Assembly: GCA_002633005.1 (NCBI GenBank)
Contig: NMRA01000262.1
Span: 465,894-529,893, forward strand
Length of the DNA stretch: 64,000 nucleotides
Direction: 5' to 3'
Origin: Phoronis australis
Lineage: Eukaryota > Animalia > Phoronida
The notes under the pieces are model-generated. The model ran no database searches, was not told where the DNA came from, and saw only the letters and a program-made list of their open reading frames with translations. Of the stretch, positions 9,235 to 57,951 are shown piece by piece (position 1 is the stretch's first letter; each line of letters begins with the position of its first letter). The position numbers and the translations under genes are program-made.

Positions 9235-9370
9235 CTATAGTAATGATGGAATAAGTAGAAGTTGTCAAGAAATTTTGGTTATCAAGTCGTATGCAGTGAA
9301 ACAGAATTCATGCCGAAAACGAAAGCCCATTATTAAAACATGTGTGTAATAGGGAAAATATGACACCAAC

Positions 9371-23549: not shown

Positions 23550-23805
23550 AAATCACCAGCACCTCGCCAACTTTCTCAACGGTAAGTCAGCTTCACATCG
23601 TGTTTGGAGGTAAAATCACCAGCACTTCGCCAACTTTCTCAACGGTAAGTCAGCTTCACATCGTGTTTGGAGGTAAAATCACCAGCACCTCGCCAACTTT
23701 CTCAACGGTAAGTCAGCTTCACATCGTGTTTGGAGGTAAAATCACCAGCACCTCGCCAACTTTCTCAACGGTAAGTCAGCTTCACATCGTGTTTGGAGGT
23801 AAAAT
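23550..23805. repeat. 63-bp tandem repeat x4
   Basis: Unit aaatcaccagcacctcgccaactttctcaacggtaagtcagcttcacatcgtgtttggaggta, near-identical copies. Confidence 0.95.
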
Positions 23806-26387
23806 TCATGTGGAAGGATAGTTTAAAAAGAAAGTCGTATTTGAATATAAAACGTTGGTGGGAGTTAAGTCGAGATTGGAAGTTTTAATGTGAACAATTC
23901 GCTGGCAAGCGTTAAGCTCAACATAGACGTTACTGCGGACGGTGTCAAAATTCAATTTGCAGGTGTGACCAAACAAATGTTGTATATTTAACATTCACTG
24001 TCGGCTTTCACAAAACAAATAAAACGCATGGCATCACACGTCTTTGTCAATAGATTTACTGTCCTTGATTATTCCTGATGCAGATTAAATAAAATTAGTA
24101 AGTGCTTAAATATGAGATTTCATGATATCATTGAAAGATCAAAAGCATAACCCGTCACCTAGATAAGGGCCTCGTATATAAAGAGTTACAGCGCAATAAA
24201 GTCAAAAGATGAAGTGGGAACAACACAAATTATGAAGTGCGTAGCTAGTTGGTATGCTTGGACACGTTATTTTGAAGAACACCCATAATAGTTTCATGCA
24301 ACGTGGCGTTTCATTTTATGCACCGGTGCGCATGGTGTAAAAGCCTAACGAATTTCAGTTTTTTACAAACGCATAAAACACCTCTCACACAAGTAAAGAT
24401 TAAGTTGAGACCAATTTTACGCCGCAAGAGGTCTAAAACGCTGAACTGTTGTGACGTTATGTTTTGTCGCACAAAACATACGTTGTCGCTCGGACGACAA
24501 TGTATGCAGAATGCGGTCATAATTGTGACAATAAACGCGAGTTTATTCCTTCTTGAGACATTGTGGTGCTCTGTTGAATGAATGACTGTCACACTCTAAG
24601 TGTATTTAATGCCGCATTTCGAGTAGACTCCAAACCTACATGAATCTGAGAATCGTGCTCGAGGTGCTTTGGCCTTCTGTGTGGTGTCAAATGCAGAATC
24701 ACGCTCAGTTGCGCTTATTTTAGTGCCCTCTAGTAACAGAACCTAGCAACTACATATCGTCTGCTGTCACTGTAAGTCAACTACTATATGGCAAGGTATC
24801 TGTTATGTAACTGTTACTCATTTATTTTTTCATTTACATTACGAAATTCTTATACCAAAAAGTTTATAGACTTCTTGATATATTTGTTAATTAAGTTTTA
24901 CTTCCTGCCTATCTGACCAGAGCCCGGTCTCTAATTTCCGTACTGACACTTCATACTCATAAACTATCAAAAATGAGCCAAATCACGGGAAAATTGGGTG
25001 TCGATCAGCCACGTTTTAAGAATCCAAACTGCACTGAAGGGTGCCTGAACTTCCTGCTGAATTCCTACTTCCTGATTGCAAGCAGTAAAGGTTTAAGAAA
25101 AGCCACAACTGAGCAACAATTTGGTCAAGGGGTCGCCAGTTGGGATTAAACGTTTCACTCAGAGCAAACTCAAAAATCAACCAAATGTCAACCGTAGCCT
25201 TCATATGCAGCACAAACCAACCCAACAGGCGTCAATCTGTATTCATGTTATGCGGCTCTAAAAAACTGCTGAGTGCCAATGCACGACTGATACACTGTGC
25301 TTTCCACTCGCGTGATGTTGTTATCTCATTTTTCTTTTCCGAAACTAGGTTACAGGAATTCTCTTTTCGTTTACGGTTTTAACTGCGCAAAACTCAAGTA
25401 AGCTCCGTCTTCTTCTAAATTCCTCATTGTATTTTGACGTAGGTAAAGTCCACTGGCGATTTTATGACATGTTCAATTGTCTAAAACTTGTTTTTTCGTA
25501 GTTTAAATTATTAAAGTTCGTTTCGACCACGATGTGAATCTAGTGGTGAGAAGTGTATTTCATGACCTCTGCACTTAAGTTGCTTAGGGTCAACAGAAAG
25601 AGTGAGCATTAACAAAGATTATCCGCATATATTCATTAATGGAGCACAGGTTCACGGACAACTTCAGCAACATGTTGAGTAGTTTTTATTTCCTTTTTGT
25701 TCTCAAAACGACATTACATATACGAAATTGAATGTGTGATAACTATGGAACTCAACCAATATGGCAATGTCGTCACAACTTGCGGTCCACATCAATTCTA
25801 AGCAAAGTCACCAGGGAGTTCACGGCGGCTGACGTCACTGTCGTCAAAGGTTCCTAAAATTGTAAAAGATATGCACTCAAGAAGAAACGTATAGTGGACC
25901 ATAACTTACAATTGATAACTAACCCAATTTTCAGTTTATCTCAACACTTCTCATAGAATTGTTTACATTTGTTTTCAAACTCAATGCAGAACCATGTTTG
26001 CAAAGCCTTGTGTTATGTCATGGTGTTTAAAAATATCCATGTTTACATAGCGGGGAATCCTTTCCAAAATGTTATTCGTTGTTCCACACGTTTGTGTCGT
26101 GGGTTTTGGAACTGCCTTAAAATAAGTCTAATTGAACTGACCTCTTGGAAATACACGGATAAGTCACCTTGCAGTGAATTTTGAGAGCGTGTACTTTAAA
26201 TTCCAGGGAACACGGGACCTGGATCACGAATATTATTTATTGCAAAGTCGTCACTAGGACACTAGGAAAGTGTCACTTAGTAGATAGTTTAAACATGTTC
26301 TAATGTTTGATTTGACTGAGTTGTTCAGAGAAAGAGCGATTTTTAATCTAAAAATTCTACATGTCTGGAAATTTTTCACTGGCATTC

Positions 26388-26743
26388 ATGTGTGACACTA
26401 GATACTCAATGTGTGACACTAGATACTCAATGTGTGGCACTAGATACTCAATGTGTGGCACTAGGTACTCTTCTTCTTCGTCTTCTTCTTCAGCGTTCCC
26501 GGCCATGTAGCTTAGATAGTCTAGTCTTTTGGGCGAAGTCTGCAGTTCGCCGCAGTGATGCCGTCGGGCCCCACAGTTTTACCTTGAGTTCCACCGGACT
26601 GAGCCATGTACTCGATGTGTGGCACTAGATACTCAATGTGTGGCACTAGATACTCGATGTGTGGCACTAGATACTCGATGAGTGGCACTAAGGTACTCGA
26701 TGTGTGGCACTAGATACTCGACGTGTGGCTCTAGATACTCAAT
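26388..26743. repeat. 21-bp minisatellite interrupted by a LINE 3' end
   Basis: (atgtgtggcactagatactca)n on both sides of the insert at 26471-26607. Confidence 0.9.
26471..26607 (-). mobile_element. 5'-truncated non-LTR retrotransposon 3' end (I/Ingi-like) with (GAA)n tail
   Basis: Minus strand reads PVELKVKLWGPTASLRRTADFAQK, then a gaagaagaagacgaagaagaa tail. TSD gtactc at 26465-26470 and 26608-26613. Confidence 0.75.
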
Positions 26744-27469
26744 GCAGAGGTTTAAATAATTCCCATCATGCATTTTTTAGTTTTTGAGGTTTCAGTTAGC
26801 TAATATGAAATGAATACCATAAAATCTAACTAAATAACCACTATTTCTGCCAAATAACCACGAATTTAATATTGAAGAACATTTGGTTATTTGTAAGTTT
26901 CCCACCAAATGATGTAATGGGTGGAAGACGTTTGGTCACTTGATAATCAGTTCTAATGGCGAAACAGAGCAGATCAGAAGACGAGGACGATTTTGAGCGA
27001 GAACTGGACAATTTTTATGCAGACACAGAAGAGAGGTGATACGGGAATCACACTCAAGTACTTGAAGAATCAGACAATGAAGTTGATTTCCCACTGAGCG
27101 AACCTTTGTCGGGTTTGAGGCCGTATGAAGTCGTCCCACTTGCACGAGAAATGTTGCAGACAGATGTGAGACACAACCAATTGGACCAAGAGGTGGTTAA
27201 TTTCCACGGAGTAGACACTGGCAAGGGCCACAGAAAACCTGGGCCACTCGTGTCCAATATTGCCATGATGGAGCATCTTCTGCACAATGCCAGCCTACCG
27301 TGCGTGTCGTACCAGTCGATCTGGGCCAGAGTCGAAGGCCTGGCATCATGCGCTCTTGAATGGAAGCGGTTTGTTCCTTATTTACAAAATTTGCAATACA
27401 CTTACAAGGTATTGAGTCCTCATCATAACGCCTCTTTGTGTTTGGTCGAAACACGACTTTGAGTTGTGG

Positions 27470-27641
27470 CTCTCGACTGAATCGCGTGTTCCACACTTAC
27501 ATTCCACACTCTCACGCGACGCACAAACCGACGCCATTTCTGTGCAACTTTCACGTAGTTCACATGTTATAGAAAATTTGAACACAAGACGTTCTCAGTC
27601 AAGTTGATGTTACTGCAGTCCCCACAAGCGCACCTTTTCAT
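27470..27641 (-). pseudogene. THAP-domain remnant (DNA transposon-derived)
   Basis: MKRCACGDCSN... then, after disruption, VAQKWRRFVRRVRVW, matching the THAP C-x4-C...W pattern. Confidence 0.5.
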
Positions 27642-27829
27642 GTTTGAAAAAAGCGACGCTCTGCGGAATCCCTCAGAACTACTCAGTGTCGCACTAGTAA
27701 AAACAACAACGGCGGAGACGGTCTTCCATCCATTAAGTACAAACCCGATAACAGAATAATGTTTGATTTTTTTCTTAGCACCAGGTATACTAAAGACTAT
27801 TAAGAGTGAATTCATGTAAAAATCATCAG

Positions 27830-30125
27830 GTAAAATCTATACCCAAAATCTCAGATTTCTCAGACTCACTTTTCAAGAATTTTCATCCATTTCTCTTAAC
27901 ATGATCTATACCTCCATTTTGCAAATAAATTGGGCGACGAAGTAGACATGTTTGATGCATTTTACTAGCATGTATAGTAAGCTGATAAATGAGTGAACCA
28001 GTCGGAAAGGACTGTGATTGATTAATTTAATGGCACAATTTTCCAAATCTATTTTCAAATCTGTATACTTTGACTTTGTTTGGCAAAAACGGCTATTGTA
28101 AACGTTTTCACTGAAGCCATTTTCGGCTAAATTTGGCACTCTCTAGCAGCCATATTACACTTTTCCATGAACTGACTTTCTAACTGATAATTTGCTCAGT
28201 CATTCCTAACCTGTTCATAATCTAAAATAAAAAATCTTGCCTTTTCCGTAATTTTTGCTTACGAAGCATTACACACTTGGTCCTATTTGCCTGTTCTCAG
28301 TTGCCTCAACCATCAACAGGGTGCTCTTGGAACAGGTAATTAACTTGCAAAAATACGACGTAAATAACTTGTATATTAGAGAAAAAACAGAAAGCATTGC
28401 TAATTACCATTTCCTGAAAACCACACTGATGATTATTGCTATTACAAAAATTGTGTACAAAAATTATGACTGACATGCGCACTTCCTCTGTATGATAGAT
28501 GGCGTTGCTGTTAGTTTCCATGCTCTCGTTCCTTGTCTTCGTTGTGTGAGCCGCTGGCGTAGGAACGGGGAGGCTAAGGCCCACTCTTCAGTGCGAACAA
28601 TTCGTCAACTCTCATTGCAATTTTGCGTTCATATTTCAATGTCCGCGCAGATTGCAATCCCGTGTGCACCCCCCGTCACCCCAACAACATCGGGTATTTT
28701 TGACAGTGCGGCAAACATTCAAGGTCAATCGAAAACAGTCCATGAACGACAATTTTGATGATGACTCAGTTCATGACTGACATTAGGTCCCCAAACTTCG
28801 GTCAACATAAGTAACGGTCTAGACACAAGCATTCCGAGTGACAGCCTGTGTGGCGTACCAAAGGAAGGGGTCAGGCGTCCCAGATGTTCTCCAAGGGTGG
28901 CACCAGGCATCTGTTAACTGAGGGGATTTCCACAGCTACCGACCGGGTTGAGGAAAGGGGGAATGGTGCCACTTGAGGCGTCGACGGGAAGGAGGCAACA
29001 AAATGCTCGCTACGCTACTGGACTGACTACTGTCATTTCAGGTGTTCAGGGTACAGAAATTTTCTGCTTGGGTGAAACCCGACACCAAATTTTCTTCGGT
29101 GAACATAGCATCTCATTTGACTCCACGGCTGGTCCTGATCAGTCACAAATTTACCTACTCTGGATAGTGGGAGCTCACCTTATGACACTGGCCTTGATTT
29201 ATAAGGTACTTTACAGCATCTCAGATGTTCTGAAGTGCCTTTAGTGATGCACTTTTGTGTTAACAAGTCTCTAAACCAAAGGGCAGGACCTTCGTTCTCC
29301 ATTTTGTCTTTAAGCATATGATACCCTCAAAGCAGATGTGACAAATAAAAATTCTCACAAGTGCATTTGATTCCATTTAAAAACTCTAAAGAGTGTTTAA
29401 ATTTACCTGATAATGAAAGAAAACGAGAGAGTACAAGTTGTTTATATGTCCTCAAACCTAATGTGAACTGAATCTTGGGCAAAGGTCACCAAATTCAGTT
29501 TTGATAGTGACCGCGCACTACGTCCAGAAAACAACTTGTTTTCGGTTGAAAGAGTTTAGACTTGATTTTAGTAACAATTTAATGCAGAATTCATGTTCAA
29601 ATTTTCGCTCAAATGGTCTGTAAACTCTGCTCATCATTTTCGAAGTAGACAGTTTTGCAAGGCAGTTTTCACTAAAATGTAAAGTTGAGGCAAGATATTT
29701 TTGTTCATTTATCAAGATTGACCCCCCCCCCTTGTTCAAAAAGTTACTTAAAGCTAAAAAGGTGAAATATGGCGGTAAGAGGGTCACAAAAACAGACACT
29801 AAAAATAGCTAAGAAAAGTGGTCTGTGGATTATATTCTCTGTCTATTGCAAAGCTGTCAAATTTGAAAAAATCCAAATAATTATGGACAGTATGCCAAAC
29901 ACCAAAGAACAAATTTCAATCTAAGTTTGTAAGTTACTTATTTTTATTGCTGACCATGTCCAATTGCGGTCTAATACTACAGCGGCGAAATTAGGGGTCA
30001 TTGAGTGCAAAAAATGTGCCATTTAGATTTTTTTTACAAAACCTATCCATTTACAAAAACTGAGGTTGTTTTGAATTTTGACTGATTTTTGAAAATCTAC
30101 TGGTTTTTATATAGATTGCCTCTTG
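27830..30125. mobile_element. Non-autonomous DNA transposon, copy 2 (inverted relative to 5347-7350)
   Basis: Ends gactgatttttgaaaatctactggtttttatatagattgcctctt. ORFs 6932-7117 and 27906-28139 share sequence (PNLAEN...FC.TKSKYT.LKI). Confidence 0.65.
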
Positions 30126-30309
30126 AGATGTCTTTTTGAGACACAGGGTTTTGGTGAGAACTCTTTAAGCTGGATTGAAAAATCAGTAGTTGAAGCTGTT
30201 TATCCATCTTTCGTTATATTAACAAATTCAACCACGTGTTTTTAATCTTGTCGCACTATTGCTAGGACAAAATCATACGCGCTTAAAACATTCAAAGTGA
30301 TTCAGCACA

Positions 30310-30384
30310 CTAACCGTCATCTTGCATTTGTTGTATTTCGGATTCTGAAAACTTGTTCAGGAACTCGTCAACTTCGTTTTCAGT
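30310..30384 (-). CDS. Cationic Cys-hairpin peptide precursor A, exon 2 (acidic propiece)
   Basis: Acceptor ggtttttatttcag|, phase 0. TENEVDEFLNKFSESEIQQMQDDG*. One nucleotide difference from 39791-39865. Confidence 0.85.
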   Translation of the reverse strand, partial: TENEVDEFLNKFSESEIQQMQDDG

Positions 30385-30929
30385 CTGAAATAAAAACCAT
30401 GGAAAAGTCTTGAGAATACATGCAGAATAGGTTAACGTTATAAAGTTGTTCTAATACAGTGGTTGCAAACGAGTAGTCAAACGTTGGTGTATGAAGATAA
30501 AGATATAGTTGTTGCCTGTGACCAAAATGTGTGTATTGTATGCGTGTCGTTTGCACCGTAGTTTTTTGAGACGAATAAATCACAAAAAACACATCAATAG
30601 GAAATTCTAATTGCCTAAACAATCTATTCGAGCAGCAGCCTATTAATTTCACGCACAAATACTTAGCAGTGGGACTGACAACACCCGAGGGCGTGGCAAT
30701 GAGTTGAAACTTGTGTGCATATTTTTGTTATTTAGGACGTATGTGCTTTTGACCGTCAAAGTTTAAAAGAAACACCACGTCTTGGCATGTATCAATTTTC
30801 CCAGAAATGAAAAGTTTTGCGCTTTGTTGTACTCCAATAACTACAATAGACCACAGAAGAACGCACTGAACTGCAAGTACTCCTCAAACACTATTCTGGA
30901 AACCCTAAAGGGTCAAGCAGTTGTATATT

Positions 30930-32660
30930 GGCCCAGAAAACGTAATTGTGGATCACTTTCCCCATTTTACAGGCTGTAACCTCACCTGTTCAGATCCCTC
31001 CTCAGCAATCAGCTGCTACCCACTGGCGAACAAATATATTTCGTATTGTTCTAAAACATCTTCGAACCCCTCGACCCACGACCCCCACGCCCCCCTACAC
31101 AAACTCGACTCGATAGAACAAGCGCTGACTTGCAGGACCCCAATGAGCTCGACTGGCTTTTCCATGTTTTTTTGCAATTAAGAGTAGTGGATTCGGCTAA
31201 TGAATGGACTAACTGCCTGTCTCAGTCACAGGGCTAAAGAATGGACTGACTGCCTGTCTCAGCTCCAGAGCTGGCGAATGTACTATCTACCTGTCTCAGC
31301 CCCAGGGCTAACAGCTACCTGCACTTGCACTCATTGATCTCTTAATTTTTACTGATAGGGCTTCAAATGTTCCAAAACAATTTCATATCGAAATCAACAA
31401 TTTCTTCGTGATTGTTCTAAAGCTTCCTCGAGCCCCGCACCCCACGATCCCCTGGACCCACGATCCCCTCGACCCATGGCTTACAACTCCTTCCACCCAG
31501 TCCAAACAAGTTCGACTCCATCTGAACATAACAGAAGCCCTGACTTGCGGAACCAACAATTGGGCCGTGAGCTCGACTGAATATTTCTTGTTTTTTTTGC
31601 AATTAAGAGAGTCGATTCGACAATTTTGAAAGCCAAAAACAACGTGACCAAATCAAATCAAAGACCTACCAACTTTACAAATGTCGTTCCTGTCAGAGTG
31701 TAATCATCTCGTCTGCTCTTCAGTGAATGGCAGATTCAACCTTTTTTGCTGAGGGTACGAGGAACCGACAAAACTTTAATTTCATAGGTAAATATAGTTT
31801 GAAAAAACAAATTGTTACTAAAAATATTTGAACGTTATATCGAGTATATTGTAAATGAGTACAAACAAAAAGCAAATAATAAAAATGTGAAATCATGTAC
31901 ATTCACGTTAACGTACTCTCTCTCTAAGTTTAGTAGAACTTGGCCATTGGAAGACGCTCGTGGAACTAATTCGTGAAAACGATAGCGCGCTTACCCTCTG
32001 ACACTGCGCCACCTATACTGAAAAGTGGCCCTGTGGAAACATGATGAGCGACACACGGAATTTCGTCTGTTGGCATCAATGCGCATGCCTTGGTCGAAAG
32101 TATACCGATCACATCGCCACCACTTGCACACGCCTTTGAGCGTAAGCCACTGGGTCGGGGTTCTCTTGAATCGATCACTGTCCGTTTTAATAAATTGCAA
32201 CTATTCTAGCCAAAGGTGGTCGTCATACTATCTCACAGTAAACTTGAAGAGGTTTCCCAGAATTCAACCAGTGGGAATGGCTGAATGTTATGACGTAGGT
32301 TTCATTACTTTATCCAGTGAGAAGGCATGTTAAACAACATTCTACAGTGCACTGTGAAAGAGTGTATAGCGCGCAAACAATGCGCTATTTCAGATCACGT
32401 TCTAACGCCACTTTCTGTTTTTAATCACCAAACTTGAGCCAGAGGAGACTCGCGTGTAGGTATGTCTTATGGGAAGACCTTCAGCGACGTTATGAGATTA
32501 TGAAATATGTAAAAAGCGCAAAAATACCTATATTGTCACAGGTCGTGGGTCGAGGGAGTTGTGGGTCGAGGGGGTTGTGGGTCGACGGGTTCGTGGGTCG
32601 AGGGGGTTGTGGGTCGAGGGGGTCGTGGGGCTTGTGGATCGAGGGGGCTTAGAACAATCC
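30930..32660. repeat. Repeat pieces inserted in the intron of peptide gene A
   Basis: cccctcgacccacgacc-rich segments and the gcaattaagagagtcgattcg block recur at ~15190-15520, ~34640-34800 and 50560-51530. Confidence 0.7.
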
Positions 32661-32784
32661 GAATATTTTTCATCATTTGCCCATAAATCAATATTCGGAT
32701 ATTTTTCGGCATAATGAGATCCACTGAATGTGCACCAAACATTTATTTCGGCGTATTTTCAAACCAACCGGCCTGCTTACTTAC

Positions 32785-32997
32785 CATTTCCCTTTTTGAA
32801 ATCCTTGAACACGCTAATTTGCACGCAGCTGCAGCAGCTACATTGCTAATGGCTAAACAGGCAGCGTAGCAAGCGGGCTTTCGGATGCGACTCCATCTAA
32901 TTCGAATTCTTGGAGTCCATCTGCCGGCCTGACAAGACTCTAAAGTAAGAGCCACGAGAAAGCACAAGACCAAGACACTAGCTGTGGAAGGTTTCAT
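32785..32997 (-). CDS. Cationic Cys-hairpin peptide precursor A, exon 1 (putative antimicrobial/toxin peptide)
   Basis: MKPSTASVLVLCFLVALTLESCQA (signal peptide) then GRWTPRIRIRWSRIRKPACYAACLAISNVAAAAACKLACSRIS-KR-EM and donor ATG|gtaagt. TATA box upstream; paralog at 40266-40478. Confidence 0.9.
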
Positions 32998-33045
32998 GAT
33001 AAAGTTGTCACGATTTAATGTGATAATACAGGACAGACTCGCAGC

Positions 33046-33051
33046 TTTATA
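33046..33051 (-). promoter_or_regulatory. TATA box of peptide gene A
   Basis: CTATAAAG about 50 nt upstream of the ATG, same position in gene B. Two CCAAT motifs further upstream in both copies. Confidence 0.7.
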
Positions 33052-35781
33052 GTCGGCACAATCTTTAATTCCTTGTGAAAATTGGTAATTCTGATTGAAG
33101 CACATTGGTCAAATGAAGATTAATACAATTATGGACAACAGTAAATATGTATAAATATGTATTCTTGCAATTTATTTATTAAGCAGATATGACAGATAAG
33201 TGAGTGCAGGAAAGTAGATTGGCATTTATGAGGGTTGTCAGATACATTCATGTAAGCGTAATCGAACGACTCGGTGTGTGGACGACTACTCGGGGCTTTT
33301 GCATAGGATACGAATACTGGACGTGTCGGTCAGAAGGTCGTTTTTCACGACCAGTTTGCCTACAAAAGCGTGCGCGCACCCAGAGGGGGCTCGACGGGCT
33401 CGAGCGAGCCCCCACCCCATTTAATGAAGTGAGCAGAGAAACGAAAACTCCGAATAAAGTAGAAAACGAGAAAAAATTCCAGTAAAAAAGGCAGGAACTA
33501 CCATATTTTGGTGATGCACAGTTCATAGCTCTTGAGAAGAATGATTTTTTCGTGGATGCTCCCTACACATATGAGTCTTCATTTTATGACTCTGTTACAG
33601 AACGGTAAGCCAGCTTATTTGTCTGTTGGATGCTAAAAGTCACATGGGTCGGGAAAGTCTTGATAGAATATCTACAGGCGGTAGGATTTAACGTAAAATT
33701 TAGCGTCAAAAATGAGACTTTTGATTATGGGCGTTAAGTCTGACACTTTGTTTGCGCAAACGAGTAATGTAATGGCAGGTCGGTCGGATGTAATCAAGAT
33801 ATTGAAGCTCGTTTAACAGGCAGTGCTGACATCCACCAAACAAAAACACGAATTGGTTCGTCAATAAGACCACAATGCTTGATTACTGCTACAACAGATT
33901 GACTAAAATCAGCAAGTGTTTAGATATAATCGTATCATATGATCAAAGGATCAAAAGCATTTTAATGTAACCACACTGAGATCTGCCCCACATATATAGA
34001 GAGTTACAGTCAAAGGATAAAGTGGGAAAATTGCAAATTATCAAATGCATAGGCAGGCTGTATGCTGAGGCAGAGTGATGAACAACATGCGCAGACTGCA
34101 CAGTCTTCACAGACTGCACCGAAAACATTATAGCAATAAAATTTGTACAACGAAACCATGGGAATACCTGTAAGCAGTGTCAATTGAATCAAAATTCTGA
34201 AATAAAAACAACAATCTTGAACAGAAAGTAGGAACGATCTTACGAGATTTCACAAAAATTTCGAAGTTTTTCAGTTAGTATGTGCACTACTAACAAAACC
34301 AAATTTCAGAAATTTTAAAATAATGTGGGCGGTGTTACAGTCGCAGGTAGTAAATATTCTCCAGTGCTACATGACCTATATTTTCCATAATGGTACGGAC
34401 ATAACCAAATGCAGGTAGTAAATATTCTCCAGTGCTACATGACCTATATTTTCCATAATGGTACGGACATAACCTAATGCAGCACCTTGAGGTTGTGTAT
34501 ATAGCTCAAGAACTTTTAATGCTACACTCCACCGATCATACTTCATGTAACGTTAACCTTCTTTTTTAGTTAACAGATTATTTTTAAACTGTATTTTCTA
34601 AAGAAATAAGAAAATCGTCGGTTCTTCGCACTCTCCCAAAAAGCTTAAAACCTTCCATTCACTGAATAGCAGACGAGACGACAACAATTTGCCTGCAACA
34701 TTTGTAACGTTGGTAGATCTTAGATTTGATTTGATTTGTTCGCGTTGTTTTTTTTTCTAGTTTTGGCTTTTAAACTTACGTAACCGACTTTCTGTTACAG
34801 AACGCGGTAGAAAATAGCTTAAACAGATATCAAACTGCCTTAAATCGCAAAAGCGAGTTTTGATTTTGACATCCGACCGTTTTGAAATTGGAGTCAAATT
34901 GGATATGATTTCAGATCAGAGTTGAGTTTCATTGACCGCAATTTTTTAGTTTTTTCATCTGGCTTAAAGTCTTTGAGGTTAGAACGGAAACAATTAAGGA
35001 ATTCTCTCCCATAATCCGCAATCTACATGTCATCGTATCATTGCTTCGGTGACCGCCATTTTGTTAGCCTTGTAAGCTCTCCAGAATACTCACGAATCAC
35101 AAGCTTTTTAATAGCCTGATTTTGCGAGATATCGTTTTCTACTCAAGAAACTAGGTCCACGGAACGCCCTCCCGAATTTGCTAAGTGACGAGTTATTTTA
35201 TGAGCCGAGAATGTTGTAAAGCCTAATGAATTGCCAGTTCTTTCCAAATCCAGAATCACTTCCAATTTGTGTAAGGAACAGTTTGAGACCAAATTTAAAG
35301 CGGTAAAAGGTATAAATCAAAAGTTGCCTCTAGGGTGGAACGCTATTGTGGTATACATTGTAGTCTGGGACGACAACACTTAAAGAATCCTGCACGAGTC
35401 TCAGGTTTATGACATGGGCAAAACCTAATGGAGATTTCTTCAAAATCCCGAGGCCTGTCATTTCATCAATCTGAGACGAGTGTAGGATTTGTTTTCTCAC
35501 ACGAACCGTAAAAACGATCTTTTTGGTGAAGAACTTAACGTGTCTAAAACTTTCAACCACAATACGCAGCTTTTGTAAAAACAGGCTCGCGTAATGTAAA
35601 GTAATTCAGTTACTTTTTGTTAATAGTTTTATTTTAAGCTTAGCAATTATAAATTGCATTCAGCTTTCGTAGCAAATGTTCAAGTTAGAATCAAATAGAT
35701 AGTATTTGAAGTAGTATTATTATAGCTTAAAGAATTTTTATAAATAAGTCAGTAAGGCTTCCCCGCACGTGAGCACTGAAT

Positions 35782-37379
35782 GGGGCTATTCGGAGACTTC
35801 TCCTCGCGGTGTCGCTGCTGTACTAGTGGTGATTGAATTGCACATGCGTCACTGTCTCCAGGTAAACAGCTGGTAAAAAGCACAGGCGTCCTCAGCTTCT
35901 GATCGTCCACAATACACTATATAATATACTACAAGGTATGACACTCCGGACTAGAAATTCCATTAGTGCTTCACTTCAGCCGTCCATAGCAAACACAAAA
36001 CTAAATAAATTTACACAAAACAGAGGTTCAACAAACCATGAGGAATTGTTCTTTCTACCAATGCCATTTACGGTGTCCTGCTTCACCCAGCTCGCAAGTT
36101 TTTGAGACAATTTCAAACCTTTTTATTTTTGATACTTTGAGCAATTTTAAACTCCGATTACAGAATCATGGGTCTGTCAAGCATCTAAGGCTGAGGGAAC
36201 CGTATCTTAGACTTTTTATTTTTCTTCTAATAGAAGATCATTTAAAAAATTATGGATAATCTTTCTGTTGTGTAAGAGTAATTACAAATCGTAAGGCTCC
36301 ATAAAAATGCAATTTTCACACGAAATGGAAGTCATTTGAATTTATAAACGACTTGCAACCTTTCAGGGCATGAATTAGACTATTCAGTCACTGAGAATTC
36401 AGATAATGTAATATATTTTTATGGGTTTACAATTGATAGCAAAACAGTTTCATGAAATAAACTTGAAGGAACTTCATGAAGGTTAAGAATTATCTCACCA
36501 TGCTCTTTCCCCCAAACATGTATTACGTGTTATTTCCACACATTCAGTTGCACCAAATATTACAAGCCCTATGCCAATCCCCCTCTAAGGACCTGAATAA
36601 GTAAGTTAAAAATTGCTGTTCCTTTTCAAAGGCTTTGTTTGTTGTCTTCAATATAGAAAATAAGCTTTGACAACAGGTCTGCACTGGAAGGGGAGATCTT
36701 GCTGGTCAGCTGCAGTCAAACACTTAAAACTAATTTTTGTCCATTCAGGGAAATCTCCTATGCACGGTACAAGCCCTCAAACCTAAAAACCAAAGGTCAC
36801 GTGGAAACAGACATGATAGATTCCATTTCAACGTGTAATAGATTTCCGGAAGACATAGGATAGGGAGTAAACAAATAGTCTAATGGATATTTGTCACGTA
36901 CCCTTTGCCATTGGGCTTGGATTTTAATCTTAACTCACTATCCAATATCGAGTTGACAGCATAAACATTCAGCATTAATTGATGTAACTGTCACTGATAA
37001 ACCTTTCAGAAATCATTCCAAACAATAATACTGCTTTGATGTACGAAAAGATCCCGAGTGCTACGTCAAGTATCGTAACGAACATCACAACAAAGATTAA
37101 TCCGCCTGGCGACTGCCGCGAAGTCGACATCGAAGAGTACCTCGGTTAACACAGGCATCTGTAGAATAAACATGGAATAATCGTTAAAATAATCACAAAC
37201 CTTACCTTTGTATAAGTGCGTGCTTACTTCCTCTCACAGAAGCACCCTTTTCAGATTCAGTTGGCACGGCTGCAAGCCATTTCACCATGTATTTAAAGGG
37301 TTCACGAAATCGAGGCTGCTTATCTATTACCACTAGTACACGCGCGCCCTCTAGTTAAGATAAATTTCCGAATAGCCCC
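35782..37379 (-). mobile_element. Non-autonomous ISL2EU/PIF-Harbinger-like DNA transposon
   Basis: TIRs ggggctattcgga...tccgaatagcccc flanked by AT. Internal SAP-like exon KGASVRGSKHALIQ(R)|gtaagg (~37207-37290) and SWIM-like VFDCS*PA (~36700-36722). Nested MITE fragment at 35881-36080. Confidence 0.55.
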
Positions 37380-38263
37380 ATTGACGTGGAGACAGCACAG
37401 CTAGACAGTTTCGCCGTCTCTATTTGAATAAACGTGGATATGGAATTCGCCGCCGAATACCAGATGGGTCCGTTTGAGTAGTTGTCTGCATGGCCTTCCG
37501 ACTGGGAGACGTACGTACAGTTGCGACACCCGATTTGTCAATCATAACCTTGTCACCTCGGAATTCCGTTATTGTTTGGTTTGCGCGCGTTTGGTTGTTT
37601 TAGGGTTTGCAGGCGATAAAATGCAAGGCGTATGAATTTCTACTTTGCACTACTTTGTGATTCGCCCTTGTAATACATGAGGGCACTCAGCCTACGTATA
37701 GGGGGCTCGAATTTTTCGGTGTACGGACCTTTTAGTGAAGGAAATCAACGAGGACTAAAAACAAACGGGGCCACAAGCTTCAGGTCCACGAATTGTGCAT
37801 CCGCGCCGACTTCCCGTGGGATTTTGTGGATTTTTTTGTTTACTGAGACTTTTTGTTTCACTGAGACCTACCTTTTTGCCCAATTCGCCAAATTGGGGGG
37901 CTCGTTCGAGCGCCCCAATCCCCCCCTGGGTGCGCCCATNCCCCCTGTGTGCGCCCATGTAATATTAAAAAATTAGTACTCTGTTCGGTGATATTAACCA
38001 GTCGTGGCGTGACACATTCCAGGTCATGCGAGAAATATGTACATGTGCGCACAGTGCAGCAATATTTGTTATCTTAAACGCGGTATAATATAAGCTTTAA
38101 GCAATGTATGTTTTTTAACAGAAGAATAATGGTAGTTAGGTGTTGCACAAATTTTGGCATGTTAGTCGCCTCAAACTTTTGGCATGTTAGTGTCAAACTT
38201 GCTTCATCCTAGTTTAATTTGCAAACATCTTTTCCGACTCAGTGTGACTAAAAACTAAGTTTA

Positions 38264-39067
38264 TTTCGAAATGTTACCTTTTTCTTCCATGACTTCTGCA
38301 AGTATTACTCAACGGAATTGAGTGAGTAAGGTTATCCGCACATTTAAAATTACTGTGAATGTATTTTAGTACAACGTCTAAAATGAATGGCAAATTCACG
38401 AATAACTCCAGCAATGTATTTGAATATTTGTATTTATTTTTCTCTAAGTTAGACATAACTTATACGACATTCAATGTGCGATAGTTCAGAAATTCAATCA
38501 ATATGACAATAATCTACCAAGCTGGCCAACTTCCGATTCTGAACAACATTAAGCAAAGTCACTAGGCAATTCCCGGCGGTTGGCGTCACTGTCTTCAAAA
38601 GCACCTAAAATTGTAAAACATACGCAATAGCACGCACTCAAGAAACTTTCAAGAGGAAACGTTTNGTTTCGAAATGTTACCTTTTTATTCCATGACTTCT
38701 GCAAGTATTACTCAACGGAATTGAGTGAGTAAGGTTATCCGCACATTTAATATTACTGTGAATGTATTTTAGTACAACGTCTAAAATGAATGGCAAATTC
38801 ACGAATAACTCCAGCAATGTATTTGAATATTTGTATTTATTTTTCTCTAAGTTAGACATAACTTATACGACATTCAATGTGCGATAGTTCAGAAATTCAA
38901 TCAATATGACAATAATCTACCAAGCTGGCCAACTTCCGATTCTGAACAACATTAAGCAAAGTCACTAGGCAATTCCCGGCGGTTGGCGTCACTGTCTTCA
39001 AAAGCACCTAAAATTGTAAAACATACGCAATAGCACGCACTCAAGAAACTTTCAAGAGGAAACGTTT
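38264..39067. repeat. ~400-bp direct duplication across single N (38665); probable assembly artefact
   Basis: 38264-38664 is repeated at 38667-39067 with a few substitutions. Confidence 0.8.
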
Positions 39068-39790
39068 AGGAGTTCACAACTAACGGTACATAATAGCCAG
39101 TTATTTAGCTTAGCTCGATACGTTCCATTGAACACACTACAGATTGTTGTATTTTCCTCAAACGCAAGGCAGCGCCATCTTTAAAAACTAATCGCAAAGA
39201 TTCATCGCCGCTGGTTTGACTTCTTGAGTTCTAACATTCCGATTTCACCTACATCTGTGCTACACGGATATTAAAAGTTCACATATTGGGGAAAAATTTT
39301 TCAAAGTGTTATGAAGGGCTACATGTGTATGTCGTATGCTTGACAAATAACGATATCAGTCTAATTCAGTTGACATTTTACAGATGGATACAGCACATTA
39401 CAGTGCACTGTGGGTTGACGACGTGGGTTATCCGAAACAGCTACTCAAAACAGAATATATGTACTTATATTTCCAGCCATAAAGTGGCCTGTATATTCCA
39501 CAATTGACAGAGGACACAAGGAAGGAGCCATTTAGCGGACAGTTTCCATGTGCTCTAATATTTTGTTTTTCCGAGTGATATGAATAAGAGTAGGGAGGAC
39601 GACTCATAACATCAAAATATTACATAATCACATTCACTCGTGTAACTGCATAATTACCCAATGCAGAAATTTGCATTCAAGAAATTAAATTTTTGAGACA
39701 TTTTACCAACACGCTGTGTTAACAATTTTATCCGCGATGATTTCTTTACATTCCCAAGCAATATATAAAGTTTCCAATCGTTTCTGCACA

Positions 39791-39865
39791 CTAACCGTCA
39801 TCTTGCATTTGTTGTATTTCGGCTTCTGAAAACTTGTTCAGGAACTCGTCAACTTCGTTTTCAGT
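39791..39865 (-). CDS. Cationic Cys-hairpin peptide precursor B, exon 2 (acidic propiece)
   Basis: Acceptor ggtttttctttcag|, phase 0. TENEVDEFLNKFSEAEIQQMQDDG*. 400-nt intron at 39866-40265. Confidence 0.88.
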   Translation of the reverse strand, partial: TENEVDEFLNKFSEAEIQQMQDDG

Positions 39866-40265
39866 CTGAAAGAAAAACCATGGAAAAGTGTTTGTTGTGA
39901 GAATACATGTGAGTACGTACAGACAGTTTAAACTAATCTCACAAATGTGTTGTAACAGACCCGCGCGTTGCAAACATGTGCAAGAGTCGAACAGTACTTG
40001 TGTATGTATGATGATATAGATAGTTTTTATATTTATACATGTGACCTAAAGCTCGTGTATATTGTGCTTGTAGCTTGCACCATATTTGTTTTAAACGAAT
40101 AAAAAGCAAAAAAAAAACAAATTAGAGTATTTATATGAATCGCCGGTCAATTCAGCTGACCCATAAGTCGGTTAATTCTCTGCAAAATCTGTCACCGCCG
40201 AAGTGTGCGACAATATCAATTTTGAGGAAATAGCCTCATTAGTCTAACTACGTACATGTACTTAC

Positions 40266-40478
40266 CATTTCCCTTTTTGAAACCCTTGAACATGCTAATC
40301 TGCACGCAGCTGCGGCAGCTGCGTTGCTAATGGCTAAACAGGCAGCGTAGCAAGCGGGCTTTCGGATGCGACTCCATCTAATGCGAATTCTTGGGGTCCA
40401 TCTGCCGGCCTGACAAGACTCTAAAGTAAGAGCCACGAGAAAGCACAAGACCAAGACACTAGCTGTGGAAGGTTTCAT
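40266..40478 (-). CDS. Cationic Cys-hairpin peptide precursor B, exon 1
   Basis: MKPSTASVLVLCFLVALTLESCQA-GRWTPRIRIRWSRIRKPACYAACLAISNAAAAAACRLACSRVS-KR-EM|gtaagt. Confidence 0.9.
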
Positions 40479-40527: not shown

Positions 40528-40533
40528 TTTATA
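40528..40533 (-). promoter_or_regulatory. TATA box of peptide gene B
   Basis: CTATAAAG about 50 nt upstream of the ATG at 40478, conserved with gene A. Confidence 0.7.
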
Positions 40534-49516: not shown

Positions 49517-50423
49517 TTAGATTATAATGGATTGATATAGCTGCCTTTGATGTTCGTAATATACCGGTGGCAAACGCTTCATTAAGCGACACCTGTTAGA
49601 TTGGTTTCCTCTTCGTTCAGTGCTACAGATATTTATCCATTCTTGTTTTAACTGTCTTAGCTTTAGGATTTCAGACTCCATTCGATCTATTCCAAACATT
49701 TCAATTTTCTTTAACAATATTTTTCGGAAATGATTCCACAGGACTGTGTCGGCGGCATGCCAATCCCGAATTGCCATCTTTGTGCTTTCCAACATAGTGT
49801 AATTTACATTTAGAAACTGCTTATACCTCATCTTAAAGTATACTACGTCGTCCATTTCCCATCCCATCAAATCTTTGAATAAAATCAACGATTCATCAAA
49901 CAGGTCTGTGATCATAACAAGTCCGAAAATTTTTTCGAACTCTTCTATTTTCGCGTTCACCAAAGCTCGGCTCTCTACTTGAAATTCGTCTAGCCCTAAG
50001 TCAAATGACGTGCGATCGTGTACACAAGGCCACAAGCTGCACATCCGTATTTTACGCATGCGCCGATCGTTGTAGTGTTTAATGTTCTTCACAAATTGTT
50101 CAGCCATGTCAATATTACTGCTTGTGTTTAACCCGAAACAGTCAAGTTCTCTATACCTACATGTACCGCTAAAGTACTTGAGTTCCGAACGAAACCTTGT
50201 TGCAGGATCGCGGATGATGGTAACATAAAATGTGTCCTTGGGCATTATGTTTTTGAAAACAATGTAATTAAATCGGTGATGGTTACAGACTATGTTGTAC
50301 TCTCCCGTTTGGGTTTTATGCAACTGCAGCTGAAGAAGGTCACTTGTCTTTAGTTTCCTCGGATAGCCCATATGCATGCTTTTGGCTCCAATTAAAAATG
50401 TGAGATTCCTTGTCGTCCCGTAC
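49517..50423 (-). CDS. Galactose-3-O-sulfotransferase family protein, exon 2
   Basis: Acceptor ttttaaacag|, phase 2. (R)YGTTRNLTF, NIVCNHHRFN, YVTIIRDPATRFRSELKYF (3'-PB), FGLVMITDLFDESLILFKDLMGW. Stop at 49517. Confidence 0.92.
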
Positions 50424-51612
50424 CTGTTTAAAAGTAAAAGGTAGCCCAGGTGAGATAAAAAAACAAAGGAAGGGAGAACATAAAAATTTAATTTCCATCA
50501 GGGTGTATATGTATGTATTCTAGTGTAGTCAGGTATCTGCAACTTTGAAACTTTAATTAAGAACGTGTCGTACACACATTTAAAGGAAATAGACGTGTTT
50601 TCTTCCAATAGTTTTTCAATTTCGGAATGTTAAGCCGTGACGTCACAAGCGCTCTTTCCAGTTGATAATGATTATAACTGAAAAAATTGAGTAAAGCACG
50701 GATTGTTCTAAAACCCCTTCGACCCACGACCCCCTCTACCCACGACCAACTCGACCCACAACACCCTCGACCCACGACCTGTGGCAATAGAGGTATTTTT
50801 GCGCATTTTACATATTTCATAATCTTATTACGTCGCTGATTGACTTTCCCACGAGACACACTTACACGCGAGTGTGTTTTGGCTCAAGTCTGGTGAAACA
50901 GAAAGTAGCGTGAGAACGTGATCTGAAATAGCGCATTGTGAGCGCGCTATTGTTGTCACGGAAATAGTTCCACGAGCGGCTACCAATGGCCCACTGGCAG
51001 TTCTACTAAATCGTGAACGTATGTTATTTCACATTTTTATTGCTTGCTTTCAGTTGTATTCCCGTTTACAATATACTCCGTACAAAGTTGAAATAGTTTT
51101 TCAGTTAACAGTTTGTTCACTGATGAAATTACAGTTTTCGTGGTTCCTCGCACTCTCTCCGTGAAAGGGTCTAGTCTGCCATTTACTGAAGAGCAGACGA
51201 GACGATCAAACTCTGCCGGAACGATATTTGTAACCGTTGTTAGTAAATCTTTGATTCGATTTCTTCTCGTCATTTTTTTCTGTTTTTGCCTTTCAAACTT
51301 GCCGAATCGACTCTCTTAAGTGCAGAAAACTGGGAAAAGACTGACGAGCTCACGGCCCAACTCATTGGTGATTGGTCCTGCAAGTCAGCGTTTTTTCTAT
51401 GTTCAGATCGAGTCGAGGGGATTGTGGGTAATGGGTAGAGGGGGTCGTGGGTCGAGGAGATCGAGGGTCGTGGGGGTCGGACGTGTGGGAGTCGAGGGGG
51501 TTTCAGAACAATCCGTAAAGCACTTACACTAAAATTGGTCACCGTTACACTAACGATGACAACGAATATTCAAAGTACTTAAAGAATCAAACTTCTTCAC
51601 GTAGTTGCTTAC

Positions 51613-51905
51613 CTGTTAATAATCGAATTCATTGTTGACGATCCCGTTTTATGGGTCTTCACAAATACCAAATTATGCCGCGGCTGTCGTTTTCTCCAGT
51701 TTGCCGTCGGCGTCCTATTACCCATTTCTGTGTTCATTAATGTTTCTTTCATCGTAGGAGTATCGTGTCTTCTTAATGATTCCACTCGCACAATGTTGGA
51801 TGGGAAATGTGTGTATAAATTAGTACATAAGAAAGACAAGCACAGTACCATGAAAATGATACTGAAAAGGCGACAAAGGGTCTTGGTGGTTTTCCGGCGT
51901 AACAT
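51613..51905 (-). CDS. Galactose-3-O-sulfotransferase family protein, exon 1 (type II membrane anchor + 5'-PSB)
   Basis: MLRRKTTKTLCR-LFSIIFMVLCLSFLC (TM)...NLVFVKTHKTGSSTMNSIIN(R) AG|gtaagc. Spliced product is 399 aa. Specific GAL3ST ortholog not assignable. Confidence 0.9.
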
Positions 51906-57532: not shown

Positions 57533-57951
57533 TTTTATATTGGAGCACCGGTACTGTTAGTTATGTTTTATATTGGAGCACCGGTATTGTTAGTTATGTT
57601 TTATATTGGAGCACCGGTATTGTTAGTTATGTTTTATATTGGAGCACCGGTATTGTTTGTTATGTTTTATATTGGAGCACCGGTATTGTTTGTTATGTTT
57701 TATATTGGAGCACCGGTATTGTTTGTTATGTTTTATATTGGAGCACCGGTATTGTTTGTTATGTTTTATATTGGAGCACCGGTATTGTTTGTTATGTTTT
57801 ATATTGGAGCACCGGTATTGTTTGTTATGTTTTATATTGGAGCACCGGTATTGTTTGTTATGTTTTATATTGGAGCACCGGTATTGTTTGTTATGTTTTA
57901 TATTGGAGCACCGGTATTGTTTGTTATGTTTTATATTGGAGCACCGGTATT
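57533..57951. repeat. 33-bp minisatellite, ~13 copies
   Basis: (ttttatattggagcaccggtattgtttgttatg)n. Confidence 0.95.

Follow-up and report, generated by a model that had tools for sequence, protein, structure and literature searches.

Gene structure and transcription

The window, i.e., the complete stretch of 64,000 nucleotides from Phoronis australis analyzed here, harbors on its minus strand a tandem pair of genes, termed gene A and gene B in the following, with ATG start codons at positions 40478 and 32997, respectively (Table 1). Based on RNA reads and sequence, each consists of three coding exons, with intron 1 in phase 0 and intron 2 in phase 1, and encodes a precursor of 112 aa that comprises a 24-aa signal, a 43-aa cationic peptide (+9), a KR site and a 43-aa acidic tail (-11). 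In both copies exon 1 spans 213 nt (71 aa) and ends at a phase-0 GTAAGT donor, while AG acceptors precede positions 39865 (gene A) and 30384 (gene B). Intron 1 of gene B is made larger by repeat insertions. A 402-nt block with gene A exon 3 is duplicated on both sides of a single N at 38665, and the second exon copy is likely an assembly overlap rather than a real exon. The window also contains a sulfotransferase neighbor, the named matches of which are animal proteins only.

Table 1. Coordinates of the features of genes A and B in the window.
Feature	Position	Strand	Remarks
Gene A TATAAA box	40528..40533	-	55 nt above ATG
Gene A exon 1, predicted 24-aa signal peptide	40407..40478	-	crude rule: hydrophobic core; C-Q-A before the cut and G after it fit -3/-1
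Gene A exon 1, predicted 43-aa mature peptide	40278..40406	-	net +9; Tyr20, Arg36
Gene A exon 1 end, KR dibasic site and tail residues 1-2	40266..40277	-
Gene A intron 1, 400 nt, phase 0, GT-AG	39866..40265	-	junction reads
Gene A exon 2, 70 nt, acidic tail	39796..39865	-	RNA reads
Gene A intron 2, 788 nt, phase 1, GT-AG	39008..39795	-	junction reads and X1 contig
Gene A exon 3 coding, remaining acidic tail, RR site, 7 terminal residues, TAA	38952..39007	-
Gene A 3' UTR	38820..38951	-	AATAAA 38836-38841; poly(A) at 38820
Identical second copy of gene A exon 3	38549..38604	-	within duplicated 402-nt block
Gene B TATAAA box	33046..33051	-	54 nt above ATG
Gene B exon 1, signal, 43-aa mature peptide, KR	32785..32997	-	B-diagnostic letters in reads
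Gene B intron 1, 2400 nt, phase 0, GT-AG	30385..32784	-	junction in reads aligned to gene A
Gene B exon 2, 70 nt	30315..30384	-
Gene B intron 2, 4461 nt, phase 1, GT-AG	25854..30314	-	loose read ends match exon 3
Gene B exon 3 coding, RR site, TAG	25798..25853	-	AATAAA at 25685-25690

An earlier note on this DNA, made from the sequence alone, had recognized the minus-strand tandem pair and its phase-0 GT-AG first intron, and both are borne out by the reads. At gene A, this intron is spanned by 33 (run X3), 79 (X4) and 1499 (X5) reads, all minus-strand, counts that include gene-B reads aligned at gene A. The corresponding gene B junction (32785/30384), which had been named as a check, is seen in X3 reads aligned to gene A, 60 of 62 exon-2 reads carrying the B letter. 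On the other hand, the note's two-exon genes with 95-aa precursors and 26-aa acidic tails have to be replaced by the three-exon model. Intron 2 of gene A is skipped by 18 reads in X4, 896 in X5 and one X1 contig (depth 4710), with none listed for X3, a run poor in gene A. In gene B, the second joint was deduced from loose read ends at 39795 (41, 89 and 957 reads), whose consensus equals the sequence with which B exon 3 begins (25853), and not from direct spanning alignment; the gene thereby reaches 25798, 4.5 kb beyond the coordinates given earlier. The stop codons of the two-exon model (GGT TAG) coincide with the phase-1 donor (G/GTTAGT, the slash marking the splice site) and have no supporting reads, depth being 0 in bin 39726-39791 in all four runs.

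Read 5' ends of gene A are concentrated at 40485 and 40488, and a T-run loose end (one X1 contig) marks its poly(A) end at 38820. Stranded spliced reads, this poly(A) end, the TATAAA boxes and the existence of two diverged copies with intact frames show that the pair is genuine, transcribed and no product of chance. Reads per million records amount to 11.7 (X3), 23.8 (X4) and 494 (X5), such that expression varies 20-40-fold across samples, and the gene-B share at the exon-2 site is 0.97, 0.83 and 0.51, respectively. Both genes are therefore regulated or tissue-restricted.

The predicted mature peptide

As stated in the earlier note, the 43-aa segment contains nine Lys or Arg and no Asp or Glu residues as well as four cysteines (positions 19, 23, 35 and 39), and is followed directly by KR. 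Its pI is 11.3-11.5. A 17-aa Arg/Ile/Trp arm precedes a C-X3-C-X11-C-X3-C hairpin; the arm holds seven of the nine basic residues and both Trp, alternates Arg with Ile, includes two Pro and, over residues 1-11, reaches a high beta-periodic hydrophobic moment of 1.19. The inter-Cys loop is free of Arg and Lys, and neither a Gly before KR nor CXMAC or KKXGG motifs occur in the mature peptide sequence; with Ser at the C-terminus, amidation is not expected. Signal and convertase sites were assigned from simple rules alone, and signal cleavage after Ser21 is also compatible with the crude -3/-1 rule.

Single-sequence AlphaFold modeling yielded helices at residues 5-24 and 29-41 with pLDDT around 90 over residues 21-40. 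The mature peptide is thus predicted to form a helix-loop-helix behind an Arg/Trp arm, in line with the helix-loop-helix suggested earlier. The arm itself, previously regarded as linear, is drawn as a continuation of helix 1 at low confidence (pLDDT around 60, residues 1-10). Foldseek returned 17 weak rows, all with E values of at least 2.5; five are of hairpinin type (7lxk, 2nb2, 6o3s, 7uv4 and 6o3q; E 2.5-9.2) and a sixth is Tk-hefu (5lm0). A wide structure search retrieved generic helical hairpins only (best Z 5.7). In consequence, the fold is uninformative on function.

With regard to divergence between the paralogues, the gene B mature peptide differs at Val29, Lys36 and Ile42, three conservative replacements (pN 0.031 vs. 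pS 0.159), and the four read variants of the coding sequence that do not correspond to the other paralogue are all synonymous. Judged from these sequences, the mature peptide is conserved and not diversifying; numbers are small and gene conversion may contribute. The signal region is identical (0 of 72 nt differ) and exon 2 nearly so (1 of 70 nt). Exon 3 constitutes the least conserved coding part (pN 0.142), with the RR site and seven terminal residues (six of seven identical) retained in both copies.

Relation to known peptide families

In agreement with the earlier note, no named family was matched in Pfam, PDB, searches of 5.8 billion and 1.84 billion proteins, Atlas or literature motif searches. 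The cysteines fit the published definition of 4C alpha-hairpinins, C-X3-C-X4-20-C-X3-C (PMC11591084), as had been noted before. With plant alpha-hairpinins such as Tk-AMP-X2, EcAMP1 and nigellin, the peptide shares the Cys motif (n = 11 as in Tk-AMP-X2) and the predicted helix-loop-helix (PMC7191063; PMC11591084), while it differs in stemming from an animal gene with introns and in its long Arg/Trp arm, Ala-rich helices and acidic C-terminal propiece. On sequence grounds the likeness is most likely convergent, homology not being detectable. A plant vicilin/modular-type precursor does not agree with the single-module three-exon precursor or with the sulfotransferase neighbor and its animal-only named matches.

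For the precursor, the earlier note had correctly described the order of signal, cationic peptide, KR and acidic tail. It had named mytilins and myticins as the model; by analogy, the closest layout is instead that of the myticalins. Membership in mytilins or myticins is contradicted by their eight-Cys CS-alpha-beta array, compared to four Cys and an all-helical model here. Myticalins are described as 23-42-aa mature peptides with pI >11, KR and a 35-75-aa anionic extension (PMC5577615), and this order of signal, Arg-rich peptide, KR and anionic extension is common to myticalins and modiocalins of the Mytilidae (PMC5577615; PMC12294457). Myticalins further resemble the gene pair in that a single exon covers everything from the signal to the first tail residues, including peptide and KR, in that their genes lie in tandem and in that a phase-1 intron interrupts the tail. 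They differ in having two coding exons and a single phase-1 intron (three exons with phase 0 then 1 here) and are devoid of Cys, often Pro-rich and amidated, and hypervariable, whereas the gene pair encodes four Cys and a conserved peptide. A sequence match to myticalins or modiocalins was not found.

CS-alpha/alpha toxins (kappa-hefutoxin, OmTx, HelaTx1, flf14/vil14a/pl14a) have the same Cys motif, and the peptide agrees with them in its predicted fold and in Tyr and Lys/Arg residues that fall in dyad register (PMC7191063; PMC7262511); as far as these sources describe them, they are venom peptides of 22-27 residues without a cationic arm, compared to the predicted 43 residues here. Arasin 1 and penaeidins likewise combine a cationic N-terminal arm with a disulfide-bonded C-terminal part, and in arasin 1 activity resides in the arm, which has 32% Pro (PMC10608444; PMC11678341). 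This arm-plus-disulfide-domain design is already known as "mixed type" and not new in itself; the arms described for these peptides are Pro-rich and their Cys spacing is another one, unlike the Arg/Ile alternation seen here. The ascidian turgencins A and B are cationic marine antimicrobials of similar size with a disulfide-stapled helix-loop-helix; their reported six Cys, CXMAC and KKXGG motifs and amidation have no counterpart in the gene pair (PMC7024374). BjAMP1 from amphioxus, termed an "alpha-hairpinin-like scaffold" in a cited title, is an animal antimicrobial with a 97-aa precursor, a 24-aa signal and an anionic region. In that precursor the anionic region precedes a C-terminal cationic 21-mer (PMC4683396), whereas here it is C-terminal and the peptide has 43 residues.

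The sole lead to a relative is P0015, a JGI/IMG protein of 441 aa on a 1366-nt contig. Its six modules, set apart by acidic spacers, share with the gene pair an alternating cationic/hydrophobic arm and a Cys hairpin with an 11-residue loop ending in Asn; the second helix is similar, and most pairwise alignments give 33-39% identity. On the other hand, P0015 is multi-module, uses Lys instead of Arg/Trp, has six Cys per module (C-X2-C-X2-C-X11-C-X3-C plus one) and lacks a Tyr/Lys dyad. From sequence comparison, a relationship is plausible but unproven.

Candidate function and significance

With a probability of roughly 0.6, we consider both genes to encode a putative antimicrobial host-defense peptide, a secreted and cleaved cationic disulfide hairpin of 43 residues that is released from a myticalin-like precursor and kept inactive by the acidic tail. 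Transcription, splicing and polyadenylation are observed. Then, the signal would be removed after Ala24, followed by convertase cleavage at KR and carboxypeptidase trimming, and the 43-aa tail (net -11) may offset the +9 peptide during storage. Charge neutralization by an extension has likewise been proposed for mytilin. Predicted C19-C39 and C23-C35 bonds would hold two Ala-rich helices antiparallel, giving a hairpin resistant to proteases. The arm could bind anionic microbial surfaces and then permeabilize or cross the membrane, with the small, mildly hydrophobic hairpin serving as anchor and stabilizer.

The antimicrobial reading is suggested by the +9/-11 charge split at KR that matches the myticalin precursor, by the Cys motif, which fits the 4C alpha-hairpinin definition, and by P0015, where the same logic of alternating cationic arm, X11 Cys hairpin and acidic spacers appears six times. 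Tandem duplication is common for antimicrobial peptide genes. Counting against it are the conservation of the mature peptide, unlike in the hypervariable mussel peptides, and a Tyr/basic pair in dyad register that suggests a rival role. In addition, several plant alpha-hairpinins are described as leaving membranes intact and some as trypsin inhibitors (PMC7191063).

That the product is a toxin used in defense or predation, or acts both as an antimicrobial and on ion channels, appears unlikely, albeit worth weighing. The arm would enrich the peptide at membranes, and a Tyr/Lys dyad would enable the CS-alpha/alpha hairpin to block voltage-gated potassium channels. Spacing of the cysteines (X3-X11-X3) is that of Tk-AMP-X2 and Tk-hefu (C5, C9, C21, C25), and in an Ala-dominated hairpin the residue next to the first Cys is Tyr20 and that next to the third is Lys36 in gene B and Arg36 in gene A, in each case on the C-terminal side, i.e., the register of Tk-hefu, with its Y6/K22 dyad (PMC9637586; PMC7191063). 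Animal peptides with the motif (kappa-hefutoxin, OmTx, flf14, vil14a) block potassium channels (PMC7191063), and strong conservation is compatible with a fixed protein target. Among 100,000 Cys-fixed shuffles, an aromatic plus basic pair arose in 0.5-1.8% and, for gene B, a Tyr/Phe plus Lys pair in 0.1-0.2%; however, this test is post hoc, and gene A carries Arg instead of Lys. The pair may also be structural, as in the Y6-K22 cation-pi contact of Tk-hefu (PMC9637586; PMC7191063), and the dyad is a weak marker since it is dispensable in the CS-alpha/alpha fold (HelaTx1). Furthermore, P0015 modules have no Tyr at the corresponding place, the toxins described (PMC7191063) are shorter and without a long arm, and no venom tissue is known for the source animal.

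Slightly less likely still is a secreted peptide outside defense, for instance one that forms part of a mucus, an adhesive or a matrix, inhibits a protease, or serves as a ligand in signaling or gamete recognition; the acidic tail or the seven-residue piece after RR would then be a second product. Purifying selection on the mature peptide, very high expression in one sample and retention of the second dibasic site with its terminal piece in both paralogues point in this direction. Such retention resembles prohormone-type precursors. However, amidation Gly and repeated peptide copies are absent, exon 3 is the least conserved part, and a +9 Arg/Trp peptide with a -11 propiece is a typical antimicrobial pattern. 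That some hairpinins inhibit trypsin also fits, but they place P1 in the loop, which here lacks Arg and Lys (PMC7191063). An artefact, whether in the form of open frames arisen by chance or of one gene whose two alleles were placed in tandem by the assembly, is barely credible and largely refuted by the RNA reads: local overlaps at single Ns, one duplicating gene A exon 3, and the near-identity of signal region and exon 2 would favor it, but the non-coding flanks diverge by 21-29% where alignable, intron lengths differ by 2.0 and 3.7 kb, A-type and B-type transcripts occur in all three raw-read runs, and additional X5 variants of about 20% each at 40308, 40395, 40407 and 40449 imply more than two haplotypes.

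For the putative host-defense peptide, the significance lies in the union of hairpin scaffold, Arg/Trp arm and myticalin-type precursor; in the literature surveyed, few animal antimicrobials are built on a two-disulfide helical hairpin. The corrected three-exon model is relevant to anyone cloning or annotating these genes, which, strongly expressed yet missing from the searched protein collections, show what annotation overlooks. As 43-mers are short enough for synthesis, function is directly testable, with a possible new antibiotic scaffold in prospect. Should the dyad prove functional, the peptide would put to the test whether defense hairpins and channel toxins can be one molecule. It is a doubtful, long-odds proposal that the pair founds an unrecognized "arm plus alpha-hairpin" defense family of animals or, more widely, marine eukaryotes, linked to P0015, in which the Arg/Trp arm attacks membranes and the Tyr/Lys dyad blocks potassium channels; if true, it would connect, in nature, the alpha-hairpinin antimicrobials of plants with the CS-alpha/alpha toxins of venoms, a link previously obtained by engineering.

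Gene structure and genomic setting

The minus-strand paralogues A and B, which encode a small cationic peptide with a cysteine hairpin, constitute a real, strongly expressed and not previously annotated pair of three-exon genes. Exon 1 is 213 nt long in both, codes for 71 residues and terminates at a phase-0 GTAAGT donor; the acceptor AG lies just before 39865 (A) and 30384 (B). Three raw RNA-seq runs (X3, X4 and X5) and one contig set (X1), all labelled as the same organism, were aligned to gene A. The exon-aligned reads are all minus-strand, and intron 1 (39866-40265), for which an earlier note had suggested looking for junction reads at 40266/39865, is spanned by 33, 79 and 1499 reads in X3, X4 and X5, respectively. 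While that note was correct with regard to exon 1, its donor, the acceptors, the 43-residue segment with nine basic and no acidic residues and the adjoining KR, its two-exon model ended at a TAG that falls in a bin (39726-39791) of zero depth in four of four runs, and a third exon is needed. Intron 2 of gene A (39008-39795; 788 nt, phase-1, GT-AG) is skipped by 18 reads in X4, 896 reads in X5 and one X1 contig, with none listed in X3, and one contig carries a poly(A) end at 38820, below an AATAAA at 38841. Reads with gene-B letters run out of exon 2 into another loose end, seen in 41, 89 and 957 reads, whose sequence matches the window from 25853 downward; the second intron of gene B therefore measures 4461 nt, as inferred from these loose ends. 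Instead of the 95 residues and 26-residue acidic tail proposed earlier, both spliced precursors have 112 residues, i.e., 24 + 43 + KR + a 43-residue tail containing 14 Asp/Glu and 3 Lys/Arg, with RR at 104-105 followed by seven residues. This RR site and the C-terminal piece, identical at six of seven positions, are kept in both tails (38952-38981 and 25798-25827, minus strand), and the piece could be a second small product.

TATAAA boxes are located 54-55 nt above both ATGs, and 5' ends of gene A reads cluster 7-10 nt above the ATG. A promoter scan revealed no strict kB site within 1 kb above A or B; CCAAT boxes common to both promoters are uninformative, the scan having been run without shuffle control.

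Features of the window (coordinates are window positions)
Feature	Position	Strand	Remarks
Gene A start (ATG)	40478	minus	sequence
Gene B start (ATG)	32997	minus	sequence
Second identical copy of gene A exon 3	38549-38604		in a block of 402 nt present on both sides of a single N
Galactose-3-O-sulfotransferase gene	49520-52199	minus	PF06990, 160.6 bits on large exon
Retroelement remains	54702-56201; 14067-14573	minus; plus	weak zf-RVT and RVT_1, both under Pfam cut-offs
364-codon open frame	9311-10402	minus	hydrophobic, possibly transmembrane stretch; no Pfam match
Exon-like frames of another gene	892-1681	minus	no Pfam match
16-nt-unit repeat pieces	31062-32661; 50712-51499		first set in gene B intron 1
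Tandem arrays	57427-58053; 23550-23864; 26367-26775; 13329-13482		units of 33, 63, 21 and 24 nt

The window is eukaryotic, with about 40% GC, and the named matches of the sulfotransferase neighbor are animal proteins, the best being a crinoid protein with only 34% identity, too distant to fix a lineage; an invertebrate source is likely. Insertion of the 16-nt-unit element explains much of the extra length of gene B intron 1; the 21-nt-unit array sits inside gene B intron 2. A tblastn search of the window yielded no gene copy beyond the two. The additional exon 3 copy most likely represents an assembly overlap, the same pattern being seen at other Ns in the window: single Ns at 37940, 38665, 47020 and 55129 are flanked by duplicated blocks of 18, 402, about 360 and 197 nt, as is typical of unmerged contig overlaps, and N-adjacent repeats in this assembly are to be distrusted. 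In X2, an RNA set labelled as a different organism, one contig of depth 3 (39794-39866) is identical to exon 2 of gene A, spliced at either end, for which cross-contamination is a more likely source than a true orthologue.

Divergence and expression of the paralogues

Where the non-coding sequence of A and B can be aligned, it shows 21-29% divergence. All three raw-read runs contain A-type as well as B-type transcripts, and X5 features extra variants beyond the letters of A and B, near 20% each; A and B are therefore paralogues and not alleles. Aligned reads per million records amounted to 11.7, 23.8 and 494 in X3, X4 and X5, with gene B shares of 0.97, 0.83 and 0.51 at the exon-2 site. Such uneven expression between runs demonstrates that A and B are regulated or tissue-restricted, but not that they are induced.

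The mature peptides are separated by five synonymous and three conservative changes (pS 0.159, pN 0.031). Of the 13 read variants listed for the coding sequence, nine are B's letters and the remaining four all synonymous. Nucleotide differences are absent from the signal region (0/72), almost absent from exon 2 (1/70) and frequent in exon 3 (10/54). A Fisher test applied post hoc to the synonymous sites gives p = 0.009 for this distribution, which suggests gene conversion between the paralogues on top of constraint. Near-identity of 40407-40478 and 39796-39865 to their gene B equivalents, set against flanks that are more than 20% different, is likewise a sign of gene conversion.

Predicted peptide structure and search for relatives

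Behind a predicted signal peptide of 24 residues (a site after Ser21 also meets the simple rule), the 43-mer has a pI of 11.3-11.5 and cysteines at positions 19, 23, 35 and 39, a spacing that conforms to the alpha-hairpinin motif as given in an excerpt of the literature (PMC11591084). In reduced form the 43-mer has a calculated mass of about 4719 Da (A) or 4733 Da (B), lower by about 4 Da once two disulfides, expected to be C19-C39 and C23-C35, have formed. The single-sequence AlphaFold model comprises helices at 5-24 and 29-41 with a mean pLDDT of 78, about 90 at residues 21-40 and about 60 at residues 1-10. The helix-loop-helix hairpin proposed in the earlier note is in line with this predicted two-helix model, while the arm (residues 1-17), taken there to be linear, is drawn at low confidence as a continuation of helix 1. 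This arm carries seven of the nine basic residues and both Trp; at residues 1-11 its hydrophobic moment is 1.19 for beta periodicity vs. 0.41 for a helix, so that an extended conformation is plausible in spite of the modelled helix. Foldseek returned no match to the 43-mer model at E 0.001 or better; its 17 weak rows include five hairpinin-type entries and Tk-hefu. A wide fold search gave generic helical hairpins only (best Z 5.7).

Sequence relatives were sought with exon 1 alone. No match was accepted in Pfam, where FAP42_B2 reached 15.7 bits in one of the two exon-1 proteins, under its 27-bit cut-off; PDB sequences gave no match at E up to 10, and a word-based search of 5.8 billion proteins gave one candidate and none at E up to 1. 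Two metagenomic loci were rejected as chance matches of 13-19 residues, one inside an 852-aa open reading frame of bacterial outer-membrane type. The Atlas yielded no usable match, which is evidence for neither absence nor novelty. The view that the peptide belongs to no recognized named family thus holds for Pfam, PDB sequences, the 5.8-billion-protein set and metagenomes queried with exon 1. New invertebrate peptide families turn up regularly.

In open-access PubMed Central and bioRxiv text, the N-terminal hexamer of the peptide was not found; of five peptide motifs only the arm hexamer matched, in 13 papers that by title mostly concern lactoferricin-derived or designed peptides. As far as motif and topic searches of this scope reach, the peptide is not in print; transcript tables in supplements of venom or immunity papers, APD3, DBAASP, Tox-Prot or TSA could hold the sequence.

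A phmmer search of 1.84 billion representatives returned two proteins. One (P0016) is spurious, a repeat-rich bacterial-type protein matched in a part without the cysteine pattern. The other, P0015, is an unnamed JGI/IMG precursor of 441 aa from a 1366-nt contig with six cationic six-cysteine modules (net +6 to +8), each with an arm in which Lys and hydrophobic residues alternate, ahead of C-X2-C-X2-C-X11-C-X3-C; three of the spacers between them have 41-49 residues, 13-16 of which are acidic. Against a profile derived from the P0015 modules alone, A and B score 21-24 bits, higher than all 2000 shuffles of every one of three controls, cysteine-fixed ones included. These scores do not prove homology: P0015 was selected as the top entry out of 1.84 billion, its E-value (1.4e-4) is a sum over six non-independent repeats, and a library of such size should, by rough arithmetic, contain hundreds of single 21-bit matches by chance. 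Partly independent support comes from the layout common to P0015 and A/B, the loop of 11 residues and the Asn that immediately precedes helix 2 in the two models (that of P0015 being of low confidence, overall pLDDT 44), and we regard the odds of homology as about even. No relatives of P0015 were found at E up to 1 among 7990 scored candidates from shorter proteins, none of 32 pattern matches in metagenome contigs was confirmed, Pfam gave three rows, all under cut-off, and the Atlas was blank. A C-X-M-A-C stretch resembling a turgencin motif occurs in three modules. P0015 is a candidate defense-peptide cassette in its own right.

Functional assignment

We assign a probability of roughly 0.6 to the 43-mer being an antimicrobial peptide. 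Secretion, followed by cleavage after Ala24 and at KR, is predicted. Until release, the tail (-11) would mask the peptide (+9), as has been proposed for the extensions of mytilins (PMC7168163, in part). The stapled hairpin would confer stability, and the Arg/Trp arm would bind anionic microbial surfaces and then permeabilize or cross them; in arasin 1, according to an excerpt of PMC11678341, activity resides in the arm. Against an antimicrobial role stand the conservation, rather than diversification, of the mature peptide and the use of the same fold for other jobs in other families (excerpt of PMC7191063).

A toxin or a dual role through potassium-channel block is unlikely, albeit the best-placed alternative. 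Animal peptides with the same cysteine motif are, in the literature excerpts, mostly potassium-channel blockers, and Tk-AMP-X2 and its derivative Tk-hefu, with cysteines at 5, 9, 21 and 25, share the X3-X11-X3 spacing (PMC9637586 and PMC7191063, in part). Tyr20 together with Lys36 (B) or Arg36 (A) occupies the register of the Tk-hefu dyad Y6/K22, and such a pair arises in 0.1-1.8% of cysteine-fixed shuffles, depending on the definition used. However, the dyad was searched for post hoc, after the sequence had been seen, the pair may only stabilize the hairpin through a cation-pi contact, gene A lacks Lys at the dyad position and P0015 lacks Tyr. A secreted non-defense role appears somewhat less probable still. 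Transcription, splicing and polyadenylation are documented steps, and an artefactual gene pair is exceedingly improbable.

Among known families, mytilins, to whose layout the earlier note pointed, have eight cysteines vs. four in A and B; the precursor is closest to that of myticalins (PMC5577615, in part). Myticalins, however, lack cysteines according to an excerpt of PMC12294457, and their exon plan differs from the three coding exons of A and B. Turgencins have six cysteines and motifs absent from A and B (excerpt of PMC7024374), arasins a Pro-rich arm; plant hairpinins differ in origin and precursor, kappa-KTx in length and BjAMP1 in domain order (PMC4683396, in part). Nemertean neurotoxin B-IV, described in an excerpt as a helical hairpin of 55 aa with eight cysteines, was ruled out by cysteine number and size. 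PMC6410017, PMC12846725 and PMC12466427 add little further. The A/B peptides thus most resemble a precursor of myticalin type with a predicted fold of hairpinin type, yet they depart from every named family tested in a defining feature. They may be placed among the mixed-type peptides, an already recognized class (excerpt of PMC10608444), and probably represent a new type of antimicrobial peptide with a hint of channel-toxin chemistry.
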